Below, in pieces: positions 252 through 7,943 of a stretch of DNA of 9,182 nt. The notes beneath the pieces were generated by a model, which saw nothing but the letters and a program-made list of their open reading frames with translations, was not told where the DNA came from and did no database searches. Source of the stretch: a virus. Taxonomy: Duplodnaviria > Heunggongvirae > Uroviricota > Caudoviricetes. The stretch's first letter is position 1, and every line of letters starts with the position of its first letter. The translations under genes were made by a program, and so were the position numbers. The DNA lies in the IMG/VR virus record IMGVR_UViG_2651869781_000012. The stretch is one strand, 5' to 3'.

Positions 252-794
252 TTACTTGTCTTTATCCGGCTGAAACTTATCAGGCACATTTCCGGTAGTT
301 TCCATCAGATAATCGGACAGCATTCGCGGGATGTTTTCATCAAGTTTTGTGCATGCGTTACAGGCTCTGACAACTTCTTTTTTCAGGCCATCCAGCATGA
401 CGGGGGTCATCTGTGGGAAGCTCCTTTGCATAGTAAGCGGGAGGCTGTCCATGATTGATGAAATCTGACTCGCCAGTTTTGAAAGCGCGTACATGCAAAA
501 CTCTGTATCAATCACGTCACCGCGATCGCGCTCGTTTTTAAGTTCCTGCGCCTCCGCCTGTGCTGTCAGTAATCTGATCCTGACTCGTAAGAGTTCATCA
601 TCATCAATCTCGCCTTTGTCGTTTGTAAGCTGGCTAATTGCATTGTTAACCCTATTGTCTATCACGCTGGCAACATCATAAAACGCCTCACGGCCTTTAC
701 GTTCAACGGGAGTCACTCCCCACTTGTCGAATGCTGTAGCACTTACCCGGCAGCTTTGCGCCATGGTTTTTTTGTTCATCAGGTGCGATTTCAT
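252..794 (-). CDS. Terminase small subunit, lambda Nu1-like
   Basis: 180-aa ORF. The C-terminal two thirds resemble lambda Nu1 as recalled from memory (ours ...LTAQAEAQELKNERD...FCMYALSKLASQISSIMDSLPLTMQRSFPQ...IPRMLSDYLMETTG versus lambda ...LTRAQADAQELKNARD...FCTFVLSRIAGEIASILDGLPLSVQRRFPE...IPGLLSEYIEQSG). The N-terminal HTH region is alignable but divergent. ATG at 794 is preceded by a weak GGGA; in-frame alternatives are TTG at 797 and ATG at 779 or 764. The gene starts about 135 bp downstream of cosN, as in lambda. Confidence 0.85.
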   Translation of the reverse strand: MKSHLMNKKTMAQSCRVSATAFDKWGVTPVERKGREAFYDVASVIDNRVNNAISQLTNDKGEIDDDELLRVRIRLLTAQAEAQELKNERDRGDVIDTEFCMYALSKLASQISSIMDSLPLTMQRSFPQMTPVMLDGLKKEVVRACNACTKLDENIPRMLSDYLMETTGNVPDKFQPDKDK

Positions 795-822
795 CAATAT
801 CCCAACTTGGTCAAGGTTTCAG

Positions 823-838
823 GTTGGTGTGTTGGTGT
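823..838. repeat. Tandem direct repeat GTTGGTGT x2 in the cosB-equivalent interval
   Basis: Plus strand 823-830 and 831-838 are both GTTGGTGT. A nearby (ACC)n tract lies at about 881-896. Both sit between cosN and the Nu1-like start. Confidence 0.5.
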
Positions 839-927
839 TATCTTTCCCTTTTTATTCATGGAGATAGAGCAAACAACAAAACCACCACCACCACCCTGAA
901 AAAGCTCATAAATAGCGAAAAACCGCG

Positions 928-939
928 AGGTCGCCGCCC
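928..939 (-). other. cosN-like cohesive-end site (lambda-type cos)
   Basis: The minus strand reads GGGCGGCGACCT, identical to the lambda 12-nt cohesive end as I recall it. Flanks on both sides also resemble lambda: cosQ side GGGTCCTTTCCGGCGATCCGGTAGGCTACG versus lambda GGGTCCTTTCCGGTGATCCGACAGGTTACG, and cosB side CGCGGTTTTTCGCTATTTATGA versus lambda CGCGGGTTTTCGCTATTTATGA. Confidence 0.8.
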
Positions 940-995
940 CGTAGCCTACCGGATCGCCGGAAAGGACCCGCCAGCCAGAACGGGCCCTAATTTCA

Positions 996-1379
996 TCAAC
1001 CAATCAACTTATAGCGACCATCCCGTGCATTGCGACGTACACGCTCAATCTTGAGGCATAGCGCCGCATCTGGCTTTTTTGGGACAGGTACGCGGCAATA
1101 TTCAGAAGCTCGAGGAATATTGTTTATCCAGTCGATCACTTCACTTAAATACCAGGCCTTACGCCCTTCCGTAACCTGTACGCGCTCGGGGAACTCTCCG
1201 CGAGCCTCAAGGTTTAGCAATGTGCGACGGCTAAGGGTAGTAAGTTCCATCACCTGATTCATATCAACAAGGCGTTCACTTAAACGCATTTTGTCAGCAA
1301 TAGCCTTTAATTCCTCTACTGCTGGATCCGGATACATCATTTCGGCAATTGGCTTAAGGTCATTGTAATGATTCTGCAT
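996..1379 (-). CDS. AlpA-family HTH DNA-binding protein (127 aa), function unknown
   Basis: Residues about 40-87 (LTTLSRRTLLNLEARGEFPERVQVTEGRKAWYLSEVIDWI) fit the AlpA/excisionase-type HTH pattern. SD AGGGGGA lies 4 nt upstream of ATG 1379. It starts 11 bp after the D-like stop and ends about 55 bp from cosN. Confidence 0.7.
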   Translation of the reverse strand: MQNHYNDLKPIAEMMYPDPAVEELKAIADKMRLSERLVDMNQVMELTTLSRRTLLNLEARGEFPERVQVTEGRKAWYLSEVIDWINNIPRASEYCRVPVPKKPDAALCLKIERVRRNARDGRYKLIG

Positions 1380-1390
1380 TGTATCCCCCT

Positions 1391-1732
1391 TTACACACGA
1401 GCCAGCGGCTGAACAGAAATACCTGAGCCAACAAACGCGGCAACCTTTGCCGACAGTTCTTTTACAGACTCAGGCCAGTTCAGAGCATCAACATTTAAAA
1501 CACCTGTCTTATAAACCTGTGCCTGTGTTTTTTTCGCTGTGTCGATTTGTACAGCGGAAACATAAACCGCTTTGCCTGCGCTCGTTCCATCCCATACCAC
1601 TAGCGCACCAGTTGCATCTTCCTGCATCAGTGGCGTAAACGCAGGTATTACCCCTTTATTGGCTGAAAATATCCCCAGCGTAGTAACCAGTGCTTCAGTG
1701 CCAGACATGAGTTCAGTGTAATGAGTAGCCAT
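1391..1732 (-). CDS. Head decoration protein, lambda gpD-like
   Basis: 113 aa. TPLMQEDATGALVVWDGTSAGKAVYVSAV and ...NWPESV...AAFVGSGISVQ parallel lambda gpD [29 protein letters not shown] and ...LWPEAA...TAFAGTAISIV (from memory). SD GGGGGAG precedes the ATG; the start is 9 bp after the capsid gene stop. Confidence 0.85.
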   Translation of the reverse strand: MATHYTELMSGTEALVTTLGIFSANKGVIPAFTPLMQEDATGALVVWDGTSAGKAVYVSAVQIDTAKKTQAQVYKTGVLNVDALNWPESVKELSAKVAAFVGSGISVQPLARV

Positions 1733-1741
1733 TGCTCCCCC

Positions 1742-2788
1742 TTAGCCAATGCGAACGGTAACAAAACGATTGATGCGGGCCGGTATTGGCTGTGGTGCTG
1801 AATGTGTCTGCACATATTCAATAGCCGGATCACCAGGCACAATATAGTTTTTCGGTACAAGTTCGGCTTTAGTCAGCCCCATCCGGATTAGCTCCGGATC
1901 CTGAATACCGCCATAAGCGACAATCCCCTGAAGAGCCGTATTGCCAAGCACCATCAAATCAGGATCAAGGAAATATTTTTCAGTTCCGTCCTCGTCGGTA
2001 TAACGCCCGCTGTAAACAACAATCGCAACATCGCCCATATACCCTTTAAAACTCACCGAATCACCAAGGTCTTTAAGGGCCGTTTCCAGTTCGGAATTAG
2101 AACCACGACGAGTATCCAGAGCCTCTTTTATCGCCCTGAATGAACGGTATTTCTTCCATACATTACCGCCCATAATGATAATATTAGTGACGCCCTCACT
2201 AAATTCTGCGTAGCTCTCAATATCATCATTTGGATCAAAAGCTTCTTTATCCTTACCTGACCACTCAGCACCGCCAGACTGAGTGATGATATTTTGTGGT
2301 TTAATATTCCAGTCCAGCTCATAACGTTCAATACCATCGCCCTCAATGATATTTTTCCCCGTTGTGATTGCCTGAACGGCAAGCCATTCAATACGTGCAC
2401 GAATAGCTTTAGCCTGATTTACAATCGCCTGTTTAACTTTAATATTACGCGCTCCAAAAGCATTGTATTGCTCAGGTGATACACCAGCAGGGCGCACAGC
2501 TAACTTATTTGGATCAATGCTGCTTTTCGGTTTCATATAGCCAGGGCGAATTGTTTTTGATTCGTATCCCTCATCTCGTGAAACTTTACTGCCCACCATA
2601 GGAGAGCAAAACGCCGCGATCGGGATATTTGGATCGTCGATCGTATCAAGAATAATGTCTCTCGATTCAAACATTACCGAGCGAGTGAAAAACAAACTGG
2701 TAAACAACGCATTTAATTTTTTTTGCACATCTTCAGCATTAGCCACCTGCACAAGCTGTGTAGGCGAATATAAGTCAACCATACTCAT
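1742..2788 (-). CDS. Major capsid protein, lambda gpE-like
   Basis: Long identical runs with lambda gpE as recalled (ITQSGG.EWS..DK...DP.DDIE.YA...GV.NII, FRSF.A.KE.LDTRRGSNSELETA.KDLG..VS.KG..GDVAIVVYSG.Y, MVLGNT). Both proteins begin MSM. Start at 2788 (MSM) or 2782; AAGAGG sits 6 nt upstream of 2782. The six-frame ORF's 5' extension to 2869 is unlikely to be coding. Confidence 0.9.
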   Translation of the reverse strand: MSMVDLYSPTQLVQVANAEDVQKKLNALFTSLFFTRSVMFESRDIILDTIDDPNIPIAAFCSPMVGSKVSRDEGYESKTIRPGYMKPKSSIDPNKLAVRPAGVSPEQYNAFGARNIKVKQAIVNQAKAIRARIEWLAVQAITTGKNIIEGDGIERYELDWNIKPQNIITQSGGAEWSGKDKEAFDPNDDIESYAEFSEGVTNIIIMGGNVWKKYRSFRAIKEALDTRRGSNSELETALKDLGDSVSFKGYMGDVAIVVYSGRYTDEDGTEKYFLDPDLMVLGNTALQGIVAYGGIQDPELIRMGLTKAELVPKNYIVPGDPAIEYVQTHSAPQPIPARINRFVTVRIG

Positions 2789-2955
2789 CCTCTTTACATT
2801 CATTACAAATAATTGTGAATATATTCTATTACCGATGTCTGCTATGCGAATACATGCAACCAAGTGCAATGTTGTATAAAATATGCCGTGACAACTTCAG
2901 TGCTGATAATTCGTGTTAATGTATTTACTTCCTTTGGTCGGGATTTATGTAGCAT

Positions 2956-3664: not shown

Positions 3665-3707
3665 AGGCTTTATCTCACAGCAGTAAATTAAAATTTTTGC
3701 GTTTTAA

Positions 3708-3940
3708 CCCTTCACCTGTTCACCTTTTGATATTTTATCTTTTAATTCATAATGTTAAGGGGTGAACAGTTTCACAAAAACTATTCACCAACTGTTCACC
3801 ACTGTTCACCCTTGAAGCTCAATAAACAATCAAAAAGGTGAACAGTGAATAGTTTGGTGAACAGTTCATAAATAACTGTTCACCCTATAATATACTGATA
3901 TAAAAGATATTTATAACAGGGTGAACAGTGGTGAACAGTT
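3708..3940. repeat. Iteron cluster, P4-type origin-like (TGTTCACC octamers in both orientations)
   Basis: TGTTCACC at 3717-3724, 3793-3800, 3803-3810 and 3877-3884. Reverse complement GGTGAACA(G) at 3761-3769, 3837-3845, 3856-3864, 3920-3928 and 3930-3938. Degenerate copies near 3708-3716 and 3783-3789. AT-rich spacers; begins immediately after the primase stop at 3952. Confidence 0.7.
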
Positions 3941-3951
3941 ATTCCATAAGT

Positions 3952-6071: not shown

Positions 6072-6392
6072 TTATCCCCGATTTGAATCAGTATTCGCTT
6101 TCTTTATGGCATTTAATGCATCTGTGGCATTTTCAATGGTGCACCGTAACGAAATATCAAACTGCCCAAGCATTGCCAGTAACAAACCGATATTACCCAT
6201 ATCAATGCGCATGGCCTTTTCGTCATAGTCCTCATTTTCTGACGCATGCCACATCAGGCTACCAATTGACGCAATACCCATTGATATATTGTCAGTAGCC
6301 CCATCCGCAGCGGAATAAACCTTTTTAGCAATATCATGCTCACAGTTAAAATGCGGATTAATCAGGTACTGGTAACTGGTCATGTCAGGCAT
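6072..6392 (-). CDS. Hypothetical protein (106 aa)
   Basis: ATG 6392 is preceded by AGGGGG at 6 nt spacing and overlaps the upstream ORF stop by 8 nt. No recognisable motif. Confidence 0.6.
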   Translation of the reverse strand: MPDMTSYQYLINPHFNCEHDIAKKVYSAADGATDNISMGIASIGSLMWHASENEDYDEKAMRIDMGNIGLLLAMLGQFDISLRCTIENATDALNAIKKANTDSNRG

Positions 6393-6588
6393 GGAACACC
6401 CCCTGACGAATACGGGCAGTAAATACCATCACGCAGCCATCAGGAGATTGCTGGCGAGCTTCCTGTTCGCTGGTGGCCTCAATGTGAATCACGCGCGGTT
6501 GTGCGGTGCTCAGGGCGATAAAACGCCAGATGTATTTATTCAGGTTGTGCGAGTCCCGCCCTTGCGGGTGTGTGGTATGATTTAACAT
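6385..6588 (-). CDS. Hypothetical protein (67 aa), first gene of the primase operon
   Basis: ATG 6588 is preceded by GAGGT at 4 nt spacing. This is the C-terminal 67 codons of the 306-aa six-frame ORF, whose upstream part overlaps the plus-strand genes and promoter region and is probably not coding. Confidence 0.5.
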   Translation of the reverse strand: MLNHTTHPQGRDSHNLNKYIWRFIALSTAQPRVIHIEATSEQEARQQSPDGCVMVFTARIRQGVFHA

Positions 6589-6673
6589 AGCTACCTCGAT
6601 ACGCTTTCTATCGTTGGTGGTTAGAAGCCCTGCGAGTGGTAACGACACTTGCGGGGCTTTGCATTTATGCACC

Positions 6674-6757
6674 TTGACAACCTCAAGGTGTGGCCCACTA
6701 CATTCTTTAGGTGTGGCCCACGTCAAGAGTTTTATTTGTGCTTTTTCTGTGTATACT
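6674..6757 (+). promoter_or_regulatory. Divergent promoter/operator region with two copies of GGTGTGGCCCAC
   Basis: TTGACA at 6674-6679. Direct repeats GGTGTGGCCCAC at 6687-6698 and 6710-6721, each containing the near-palindrome GTGGCCCAC. TATACT at 6752-6757 lies about 30 bp upstream of the RHH gene ATG. The region sits between divergently oriented genes at 6588 (-) and 6788 (+). Confidence 0.4.
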
Positions 6758-6787
6758 GTCCCCCACCAATCCAACAGAGGAATAGAA

Positions 6788-6967
6788 ATGGCAACGGGTA
6801 CAACAAACGCAAAATCACAAGCTCTAAAGGCTCGTGTACCACACGAAATAGTAAACGCCATGGAATCAGTGAAAGAATCAGGCGAAAGCACATCACAATT
6901 CATCATTGCGTCAATGCAAGGCGAGATCAAACGCCGCCAGCGACGCAAAGCCAAGGAGTCAGAATAA
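6788..6967 (+). CDS. Ribbon-helix-helix (CopG/Arc-like) DNA-binding protein, 59 aa
   Basis: AGAGG at 6776-6780 precedes ATG 6788. The sequence KSQALKARVPHEIVNAMESVKESGESTSQFIIASMQGEIKRRQRR fits a beta-strand plus two helices RHH layout. Transcribed divergently from the primase operon. Confidence 0.6.
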   Translation: MATGTTNAKSQALKARVPHEIVNAMESVKESGESTSQFIIASMQGEIKRRQRRKAKESE

Positions 6968-7024
6968 TCACTATCAGCGCCGTGGTGTGAGTAACTACGG
7001 CGCATTGCTATGCAGGTGCTTACC

Positions 7025-7204
7025 ATGAACGATAAAGAGTTAAAAAAAACACCACCACAAACACTGAAAGGACAGCGCAAAAAGATAGCGCATGAGCATG
7101 AATCAGAAAGATTCGCCCCCTGTTCTTTTGCTCTTGAGAAATTCCTTAAGGAGCACAAGAAAAAGCTATCATTGCAAACCTGGGAACGAACCGAATCTGA
7201 CTGA
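7025..7204 (+). CDS. Hypothetical small lysine-rich protein (59 aa); coding status uncertain
   Basis: ATG 7025 is preceded by AGGTG (7014-7018). It lies between the RHH gene and the plus-strand terminator. Highly charged, no recognisable motif. An alternative ATG is at 7010. Confidence 0.3.
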   Translation: MNDKELKKTPPQTLKGQRKKIAHEHESERFAPCSFALEKFLKEHKKKLSLQTWERTESD

Positions 7205-7268
7205 TCAAATTGCCCACCAGCCAGCAAATCGCTATGATGTTCGGGCTTATGTTTAGTGTTTTCCCATT

Positions 7269-7297
7269 GGCGACCGCCCCCGGTCGCCTTTGTTTTA
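7269..7297 (+). terminator. Rho-independent terminator
   Basis: Stem GGCGACCG(7269-7276), loop CCCC, stem CGGTCGCC(7281-7288), then TTTGTTTT(7289-7296). It lies between convergent plus-strand genes and the alpA stop at 7316. Confidence 0.6.
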
Positions 7298-7315
7298 TAT
7301 GTCATATGCTCCCCT

Positions 7316-7525
7316 TTACGCTGCCTTACCTGAATTAATGCGATCCCGGCTTTTAACCCATTCCATAACCTCGGACAGCAGCCAACCTACAGAACGCCCC
7401 CCCAGATTAAGACGTGACGGAAAGCATCCTTTTTTCTCCAGTTCATAGCGTGTAGTGCGACACACTCCAGTTAACTTACGACATTCATCCTCACGGATTA
7501 CGCGATCTTCATTTATTTCACGCAT
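7316..7525 (-). CDS. alpA: AlpA-family transcriptional regulator
   Basis: 69 aa. LTGVCRTTRYELEKKGCFPSRLNLGGRSVGWLLSEVMEWV matches the AlpA HTH pattern. Same orientation as the integrase, with an AT-rich upstream region. Confidence 0.85.
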   Translation of the reverse strand: MREINEDRVIREDECRKLTGVCRTTRYELEKKGCFPSRLNLGGRSVGWLLSEVMEWVKSRDRINSGKAA

Positions 7526-7943
7526 ACAAAAACCTACATAAAAATTACGTATATAAACTTTTCTCTTAGCTGTAGATATATGAGACCGGATATTACTTAG
7601 ATTCTTTTTTCACCTCTTAAATTAAAAACACAACCTTGCTAAAGGCTTTGTTCGCTAAGGTTCGTAGAAGCTCGTTAGTGTTTAAAATCGTGTCACGAGT
7701 TTTTAAGCGACGCAACAAAAAATGTCGTCATTTGGCATTACGCTTGAATTATCTCATTAAAAACAAATAGATAAACCATCAAGTGTTGGAACAATCAAGA
7801 AACAGAGAATAAAAACTCAGAAGAAGACATTCCAATTTTTTGATGGTTAACATATATAAAGCGAAGATATTTGCAGATATTTTCCGATATTCTACGATTT
7901 ATTCACGGCTGTAATCTCTTAAAGAAAAAACAGCCGTAATTTG

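Follow-up and report, generated by a model that had tools for sequence, protein, structure and literature searches.

A second, extended AlpA-type protein in the capsid operon of a Gram-negative phage satellite and a candidate operator at its capsid promoter

What does a second AlpA-type gene do among the late genes of a phage satellite? This question is raised by a 9,182-nt stretch of DNA (IMG/VR record IMGVR_UViG_2651869781_000012; the window refers to this whole stretch), which is a cos-type Gram-negative phage-inducible chromosomal island (PICI) of the EcCICFT073 kind. The published work assigns the regulation of Gram-negative PICIs to a single AlpA encoded close to the integrase gene int, and typical E. 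coli PICIs are stated in one paper to have one AlpA only (PMC11773190). The window carries a further AlpA-type gene, here called AlpA2, between the head decoration gene and cos. A preliminary description of the DNA had pointed to this gene and had considered a cos or packaging specificity factor, a late activator or a protein interfering with the helper phage. We found that AlpA2 forms an extended AlpA subfamily of its own, which a widespread PICI lineage carries as a fixed part of its capsid module, and that the capsid promoter of these islands is preceded by a phased repeat array that is a candidate operator.

AlpA2 is encoded on the minus strand at 996..1379. Its coding sequence starts with ATG, comprises 127 aa and ends with the stop codon at 998..996; the assignment is based on the list of open reading frames (ORFs), on Pfam, PDB and PHROG matches, on conservation and on the ratio of nonsynonymous to synonymous substitution rates (dN/dS). 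Residues 36-85 match the Pfam family Phage_AlpA (PF05930; profile positions 2-51 of 51) with E=1.4e-8 and 34.9 bits, compared to a curated cut-off of 21. PDB sequence searches provided the AlpA-family excisionase structure 8C3T with E=1.6e-10 and nothing beyond it, and residues 11-109 match PHROG 2790 ('excisionase and transcriptional regulator') with E=1.8e-48. The extent of the latter match means that PHROG 2790 already takes in most of the extensions of AlpA2. In RefSeq the identical protein WP_001179421.1 is found in a 97%-identical island and is named 'helix-turn-helix transcriptional regulator', while NCBIfam holds no family for AlpA2 or its neighbours.

The protein consists of N-terminal helices (residues 8-15 and 19-33), a winged helix-turn-helix (HTH) core of the AlpA/excisionase type (residues 36-86; 1122..1274, minus strand), a Pro-rich linker (residues 87-104) and a C-terminal amphipathic basic helix, LCLKxERVRRQAR (residues 105-120; 1020..1067, minus strand). 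The recognition helix LSRRTLLNLEAR is nearly invariant in the family, and the C-terminal helix is kept in representatives at 47-53% identity. Modelling with AlphaFold2 (AF2) from a 21-sequence alignment yielded an unusable model with a pLDDT confidence score of 60; an alignment of 123 sequences fixed the core. The core has a winged HTH fold that resembles a solved family member, the closest structure being the GIsul2 excisionase 8C3T with 40-45% identity in the core. Fold-search values were 7.3 for RdfS, 7.0 for BldC, 6.8 for Pukovnik Xis, 6.2 for RppC, about 6 for DNA-binding domains of terminase small subunits (TerS) and 4.8 for TorI, and MerR-type domains were found as well. These searches matched the core HTH alone and gave nothing for the N- and C-terminal extensions. 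Both terminal helices possess heptad-like hydrophobic faces (V21, L24, I27 and M31 at the N-terminus; L107, I111, V114 and A118 at the C-terminus). For pairs with unsaturated dS, dN/dS was 0.07-0.17 overall, 0.01-0.07 in the HTH, 0.11-0.24 in the N-terminal and 0-0.22 in the C-terminal extension. As judged from these ratios, purifying selection is strong on all three parts of the protein.

AlpA2 is a real, strongly conserved gene. The AlpA-type HTH protein of 127 aa with an extra C-terminal region had been described before; its ORF proved exact, and the database matches agree with the family. The N-terminal extension and the repeat array discussed below go beyond that description. By sequence and fold AlpA2 belongs to the Phage_AlpA family, but not by context: members are usually short single-domain proteins (~60-75 aa) encoded next to int, whereas AlpA2 lies 6.5 kb from int within the capsid operon. 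The same difference is seen with solved relatives. The GIsul2 AlpA/excisionase (8C3T), RdfS, Pukovnik Xis and BldC are single-domain proteins of 55-70 residues that align only with residues ~35-90 of AlpA2, and the first three are excisionases acting at att sites.

AlpA2 is indeed the second AlpA of the window. The first, AlpA1 (7316..7525, minus strand; 69 aa; Pfam E=9e-16), is int-proximal and holds the position of the PICI master regulator, i.e. the first gene downstream of int. AlpA1 is the window's own copy of the EcCICFT073 AlpA, the master activator of Gram-negative PICIs (PMC6092414). While AlpA2 is like that protein in family and in kind of element, its core is only 32% identical to AlpA1 (over 56 aa), it is nearly twice as long, it has conserved extensions and it lies at the end of the capsid operon rather than on the int side. 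Across islands it is also far more conserved than AlpA1. The only published second AlpA in a PICI that we found is alpA_1 of EcCIMP1, which is dispensable for excision and transfer of the island (PMC11773190). The gene alpA_1 lies at the end of that island in the opposite orientation, and its product is similar to the helper Xis, can replace it and supports excision of the helper, while AlpA2 is co-oriented with its neighbours, part of the capsid operon and equipped with extra helices. Term searches of the available text of PICI papers, including the one on helper-embedded PICIs, returned no passage on an AlpA gene in the late zone. Next to the EcCICFT073 AlpA, the nearest functional analogue is Vis of P4, a satellite protein of the AlpA family that is reported to regulate late promoters, including the promoter of the capsid-size operon. 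Vis is short, is encoded first in an operon beside int and doubles as excisionase, and P4 has no capsid gene; Vis has no subfamily relationship to AlpA2 at the sequence level.

The late operon starts with the major capsid gene (1742..2782, minus strand), which encodes a lambda gpE-like protein of 346 aa from the annotated ATG (Pfam Phage_cap_E, 1.5e-41). It is followed by the gene of the lambda gpD-like head decoration protein (1391..1732, minus strand; 113 aa; Pfam HDPD, 2.3e-15), which lies immediately 5' of AlpA2. At the junction of these two genes (1380..1393, minus strand) the stop codon TAA (1393..1391) is abutted by the Shine-Dalgarno sequence AGGGGGA (1390..1384), after which TACA and the ATG at 1379 follow. 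The junction between capsid and decoration gene has the same arrangement, with TAA at 1744..1742, GGGGGAG at 1741..1735, CA and the ATG at 1732. From this reading of both junctions, AlpA2 is translationally coupled to the decoration gene, in agreement with what had been noted before. Likewise, its location between the decoration gene and cos stands, with the stop codon at 998..996 and cosQ at 969..963.

AlpA2 was found in 408 of 5,426 complete E. coli genomes (7.5%). Homologues, almost all of them 127 aa long, come from Escherichia, Enterobacter, Citrobacter, Klebsiella, Salmonella, Kosakonia, Kluyvera, Cedecea, Buttiauxella and others. A tblastn search of 50,697 phage records, lambda included, was blank, and the lambda annotation shows no such gene beside cos, confirming that lambda has no counterpart. 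A library clustered at 50% identity contains only three full-length representatives (P0001, P0100 and P0101); about 2,000 weaker matches have only the HTH in common with AlpA2. A collection of genome contigs contained only 4 AlpA2 loci, and a metagenome scan revealed no further clades. The sequence of recognition helix and wing, TTLSRRTLLNLEARGEFPxRVQVTEGRKAWYLSE, hardly varies across the family, and the C-terminal motif LxLKxER...G...L(I/V)G is retained down to 47-53% identity. The gene contexts of more distant AlpA proteins with N-terminal extensions (P0116 and P0117) proved unrelated, and an apparent homologue of the C-terminal tail alone (P0103) turned out to be a capsid/AlpA2 deletion chimera.

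Mapping of the neighbours at 98 AlpA2 loci located the gene directly after the capsid and decoration genes, with few exceptions at contig ends. The block capsid-decoration-AlpA2 is the sole one that otherwise different islands share at good identity. Their integrases (40-51% identity) and att sites differ, as do the early regulators, the family of the primase (D5_N, DUF927 or Toprim) and all that lies to the right of cos. Regarding the latter, 47 loci have a PICI-type cosB' (inverted GGTGGTG) together with a Nu1-like TerS, 8 have lambda-type R sites with a phage-like Nu1, 18 have lambda-type R sites and no TerS, and 19 have neither, some of them with TIR or Abi cargo. RppA accompanied AlpA2 in none of the 98 loci. 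Conversely, 80 islands with an EcCICFT073-type capsid module all lack AlpA2, although about 19 of them contain RppA and about 39 the same Nu1-like TerS. The occurrence of AlpA2 with varied sets to the right of cos, and of the same TerS without AlpA2, indicates that the cassettes on the two sides of cos assort independently. The PICI late zone thus appears to be assembled from independently assorting left-of-cos and right-of-cos cassettes.

Which DNA could AlpA2 act on? In front of the capsid gene the window contains three direct repeats, TTATAC (2879..2874), TTGCAC (2869..2864) and TTGCAT (2859..2854), which are separated by N4 and hence phased by 10 bp. We regard this array (2854..2879, minus strand) as candidate operator of AlpA2. 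It is followed by a late promoter core (2823..2850, minus strand) with a -35-like element TTCGCA (2850..2845), a 16-nt spacer and the -10 element TAGAAT (2828..2823). Relative to the capsid-gene promoter, the hexamers are centred at about -60.5, -50.5 and -40.5, and sometimes at -70.5. Arrays of three to five phased hexamers are found 5' of the capsid gene in every AlpA2 island with enough upstream sequence. In our alignment (A3) the spacer between the SSB and capsid genes cannot be aligned between genera except for one invariant block, which is the array. The window contains one chain of at least three hexamers spaced by 10-11 bp, compared to 0.006 expected from shuffled windows, an estimate that is optimistic because the pattern was set after viewing the sequences.

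The array is the single chain of this type in loci of 18-21 kb, att flanks and helper late genes included, and no such chain occurs in lambda or the CFT073 prophage. With a slightly relaxed pattern exactly one chain was found in 113 of 132 AlpA2 loci, the others being truncated or having two perfect hexamers, while none was found in the 80 EcCICFT073-type loci without AlpA2. Although the sequence in between is not conserved, the last hexamer is always equally far from the -10 element. Of 11 representatives, 7 have a TGn extended -10, and by inspection most have no -35 element; the relatives mostly combine an extended -10 (TGnTAnnAT) with the absence of a -35. A weak or absent -35 element and a proximal site near -41.5 are the features of promoters controlled by class II-type activators, and both are found here. 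Taken together, the array position and the extended -10 without a -35 provide the geometry of an activator-dependent promoter. The earlier idea of a late activator hence receives indirect support from conserved phased repeats at class II positions that occur only in AlpA2 islands; the activation itself stays a prediction. Two other assignments of the array were discarded: the replication origin, since the iterons GGTGAACAGT of the origin lie at 3700-3945, and a sigma-54 promoter, since by inspection TG stands in place of the -24 GG and the spacing deviates by one.

The proteins and arrays of different islands provide hints on the binder. Among islands whose arrays are identical and whose AlpA2 proteins are 95-100% identical, the recognition helices of the AlpA1 alleles differ (CRTTRYE, ANSTRWK and SRSCRYR). 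Changes in AlpA2, on the other hand, are accompanied by changes in the array. AlpA2 of the Buttiauxella/Scandinavium type (N56D, L57M, A59E) pairs with TTATAC-type repeats, the P0101 clade (R52Q) with TTAGAC/TTGTGC hexamers and the Cedecea protein (R52G) with TTGTAC. One island (L099) combines the common E. coli AlpA1 allele with a diverged AlpA2 and a TTATAC-type array. Members of the Xis, RdfS and BldC fold class polymerise head-to-tail on direct repeats. Given the fold class, the failure of AlpA1 to track the array and the changes along AlpA2 clades, AlpA2 is the most economical candidate for the binder.

At a probability of about 0.45, i.e. slightly below an even chance, we consider AlpA2 to be a dedicated transcription regulator of the late operon capsid-decoration-AlpA2, which would most likely act as positive autoregulator. 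Negative autoregulation is a possible alternative for the sign. What we infer from the comparisons above is that AlpA2 binds the array, in which direction it regulates and what its extensions do. A precedent is the EcCICFT073 AlpA, a transcriptional activator of island genes (PMC6092414). If AlpA2 acts in this way, the first molecules would come from read-through of the early/replication operon driven by AlpA1, a source suggested by the lack of a minus-strand terminator with a T-run between the SSB and capsid genes. In helper-embedded relatives, late transcription of the helper could serve as first source (PMC10111431). Several AlpA2 protomers would then use their winged HTH to assemble cooperatively and head-to-tail on the TTRYAY hexamers, of which there are three to five at 10-bp spacing. 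From the site at -40.5, AlpA2 would recruit RNA polymerase to a promoter with a usable or extended -10 and a poor -35. A self-reinforcing switch of this kind would lock capsid, decoration protein and AlpA2 at high expression. Contacts between protomers and/or with the polymerase would be made by the two conserved extensions, the helices at the N-terminus and the basic helix at the C-terminus.

Several points weigh against autoregulation by AlpA2. The tie between AlpA2 and the array is suggested by co-occurrence, and with the array only 1.5 kb away in the same module co-inheritance would be expected from linkage alone. Each case of covariation represents one lineage, and the hexamer pattern was, as mentioned, defined with the sequences in view. 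An activator encoded as third gene of its own operon requires another source of first expression. The strong coupling to structural genes and the strong Shine-Dalgarno sequence hint at near-stoichiometric expression, which would be unusual for a regulator. TTGCA half-sites also occur in the EcCICFT073-type late promoter, there as inverted repeat, such that a shared factor or a common promoter ancestry is possible. In the E. coli clade two of the hexamers form TTGC-N6-TTGC, the lambda CII box. Finally, the nearest solved relatives of AlpA2 are excisionases and not activators.

The late promoter of the EcCICFT073-type islands (L014 12960-13669, L100-L179) is a different one, in which an inverted repeat ATTGCAyAAAATGCAAT covers the -35 region and is combined with TATAAT. 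In about half of these loci a gene of a PerC-family regulator is located just upstream; the EcCICFT073-type capsid module may have a late regulator of its own.

The array may alternatively be bound by a lambda-type CII protein, by the early AlpA1 or by a host factor, with AlpA2 having its target elsewhere, which we consider unlikely. TTGCAC-N4-TTGCAT includes the CII box, the same search in lambda detects pRE as sole pair, and some early AlpA-like regulator is present in all islands. However, the second TTGC is separated from the -10 element by 12 nt at pRE compared to 27 nt here, and other clades carry TTAT, TTAG or TTGT in place of TTGC in three to five repeats. A CII box was considered unlikely already from the position and from these non-TTGC variants. 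Concerning AlpA1, its recognition helices vary among islands with identical arrays. The array is also missing from AlpA2-less islands of the same hosts.

That AlpA2 is aimed at the helper, as regulator or as TorI-like protein-binding inhibitor of helper late expression or assembly that favours the island, seems quite unlikely. The family is restricted to satellites, with no member in the phage records, AlpA2 is predicted to be expressed together with a late zone of the interference type, and its conserved C-terminal helix has no assigned partner. TorI is an AlpA-like winged HTH protein that acts through protein binding, and by analogy AlpA2 might do so as well. Against this, neither lambda nor the CFT073 lambdoid prophage contains a candidate array, and none was detected in the helper late genes that flank embedded islands. 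Moreover, in EcCICFT073, an island without AlpA2, rppA alone among the genes after ori blocked lambda (PMC6739421).

A role as excisionase, with AlpA2 being an additional one for the island's integrase or a stand-in for Xis of the helper prophage, is in our view slightly less probable again. It is favoured by the nearest solved structures, which are the excisionases 8C3T of GIsul2, RdfS, Pukovnik Xis and TorI, and by the label of PHROG 2790. Lambda Xis is built from a winged HTH and a C-terminal tail contacting a partner, a layout that AlpA2 may share by analogy. Many relatives of the island sit inside helper prophages, and in EcCIMP1 alpA_1 partly substitutes for helper Xis (PMC11773190). An int-adjacent AlpA1 is, however, already present, and AlpA2 is found 6.5 kb away from int within the capsid operon. 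It is 95-100% identical across islands in which the integrases are only 40-51% identical and the att sites differ, such that it does not co-vary with the integrase. A phased array of the candidate motif is located at neither island end and occurs solely 5' of the capsid gene. In addition, AlpA2, unlike EcCIMP1 alpA_1, shows no similarity to a phage Xis in the 50,697 phage records. Clear homology to a known excisionase, combined with a cognate site close to att, had been named in advance as a finding that would refute the functional proposals: the nearest structure is the GIsul2 excisionase, but no candidate site was found near att.

A role in packaging, at the left side of cos (cosQ/cosN) or on the terminase, e.g. 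by promoting cleavage or termination at cos on the small island genome as a functional cousin of Rpp, is very unlikely. The end of AlpA2 is only 27 nt from cosQ and 57 nt from cosN. CosQ (GGGTCCT; 963..969, minus strand) and the 12-nt cohesive-end sequence of cosN (GGGCGGCGACCT; 928..939, minus strand) are identical to those of lambda. The segment cosQ-cosN-CGCTATTTATGA is near-identical to lambda, with divergence beginning in cosB. The island-specific cosB' (800..927, minus strand) contains the inverted repeats TTTCAGGGTGGTG (901..889) and CACCAACCTGAAA (829..817), which are about 59 nt apart. Beyond it, outside the AlpA2 module, a full-length Nu1-like TerS is encoded (252..797, minus strand; Pfam Phage_Nu1, 9.8e-23) that aligns with residues 2-180 of lambda Nu1 but whose N-terminal DNA-binding part has diverged from it. 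The GGTGGTG inverted repeats of cosB' co-vary with this TerS and not with AlpA2. The occurrence of AlpA2 depends neither on the cosB type nor on whether, and which, TerS or Rpp is encoded, and the free combination of AlpA2 with at least four arrangements to the right of cos makes a cosB/TerS specificity partnership unlikely. EcCICFT073-type islands share cosQ/cosN and often the Nu1-like TerS without having AlpA2. The interval from the AlpA2 stop to cosQ is devoid of any repeat or block conserved across genera, and AlpA2 has no sequence similarity to Rpp or TerS. The proposed cos or packaging specificity factor is therefore disfavoured: AlpA2 occurs with PICI cosB and TerS, with lambda cosB with or without TerS and with neither, while the same TerS and cosB occur without it. 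Most improbable is a coupling of capsid expression to packaging, in which AlpA2 would assemble head-to-tail on DNA and engage the helper terminase or procapsid at cosQ/cosN via its C-terminal helix; if true, the small island genome would be recognised or cut independently of cosB, TerS and Rpp, providing a second hijacking route unrelated to Rpp.

AlpA2 was also rejected as an Rpp proper. RppA and RppC have an N-terminal HTH, are encoded to the right of cos, are paired with a dedicated cosB and bind helper TerS (PMC6739421). AlpA2 lacks the combination of N-terminal winged HTH and C-terminal coiled coil, is encoded to the left of cos, has no homology to RppA, RppB or RppC and, occurring with four configurations to the right of cos, is not paired with a dedicated island cosB. 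The 181-aa protein to the right of cos was rejected as Rpp, too, since it has no RppA similarity and no PDB match and aligns over its full length with lambda Nu1. The Nu1-like TerS stands in RppA's place in about 39 of the 80 EcCICFT073-type islands, and a cos TerS encoded by the PICI itself seems to be a frequent substitute for Rpp; the papers considered here on these PICIs say that terS is lacking.

In EcCICFT073 the slot of AlpA2 (capsid - decoration - X - cos) is occupied by c1501, with rppA located right of cos. Homology between c1501 and AlpA2 was rejected, as neither BLASTP nor hhalign detected any, and c1501, unlike AlpA2, has no HTH. It shares 37% identity over 83 aa (L007 2084-2497) with the C-terminal Nu3/scaffold part of the S49 protease gene of the helper prophage (L007 45395-45628), and may be a satellite scaffold protein.

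Further observations concern the cos region. A 21-nt direct repeat with 76% identity flanks cos at 990-1010 (AlpA2 end) and 788-808 (TerS start), and a similar pair is found in L002; the repeat may mark the boundary of a cassette or have arisen by chance. In several islands of the E. coli clade and related ones, including L009 and L010, AGG(G)CCCG occurs 8-12 nt past the AlpA2 stop (975-988 in the window) and complements the cosQ segment CGGGTCCT (963-970), which would allow a candidate hairpin across cosQ in RNA or in single-stranded DNA. L003 (8345-8700) and L009 (5384-5700) have kept AlpA2 and the left cos half but possess a lambda-type cosB (R3/R2/R1, CGTTTCC) and no TerS right of cosN. 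The presence of a lambda-type cosB without TerS in some AlpA2 islands suggests recombination with the helper at cos.

The remaining parts of the island follow the common layout. All genes are on the minus strand in the order int, AlpA1, Icd-like, DUF4222, D5-type primase, origin, orf81, SSB, capsid, decoration, AlpA2, cos and Nu1-like TerS, and EcCICFT073 is an example of a Gram-negative cos-type PICI with the same layout (PMC6092414, PMC6739421). The integrase gene occupies 9182-7944 and the primase gene 5784-3952, both on the minus strand. In E. coli W619 a 97%-identical island sits between clpS and cspD. The iterons GGTGAACAGT/ACTGTTCACC of the replication origin (3700-3945), just past the primase gene, number at least 12, are found in either orientation and surround an AT-rich core. 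Between int and alpA1, at about 7868-7895 (minus strand), three ATATC repeats are phased by 11 bp (gaATATCggaaaATATCtgcaaATATCttcgc), which may be sites for AlpA1 or for the arm domain of the integrase. The mechanically listed 306-aa ORF at 6385-7305 (minus strand) is probably not a gene; for a near-identical island RefSeq shows an Icd-like gene (minus strand) and a YlcI/YnfO-family gene (plus strand) instead. Rfam gave no match in the window at the gathering threshold.

Close relatives of the island (L002-L006, L013 and L099) are inserted within the major capsid gene of lambdoid prophages and thus represent helper-embedded PICIs, in which a truncated helper capsid gene and the tail genes FI, Z, U and V follow directly downstream. 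To the right of cos, relatives carry defence-type cargo such as a TIR-domain protein (IAI39 island; L013 7260-8402) and an Abi_C protein (L002 9779-10540).

AlpA2 bears on the timing and control of the late (capsid/packaging) genes in Gram-negative PICIs. What is new is that a large lineage of these islands, helper-embedded ones included, has a second, distinct AlpA-type protein that is tied to the capsid and decoration genes, together with a candidate operator at the capsid promoter. For annotation this means that a match of a satellite protein to the 'AlpA family' does not automatically denote the master regulator or an excisionase. Late-gene control and early-to-late switching in phage satellites thereby become directly testable with one protein and one DNA fragment of 60 bp.

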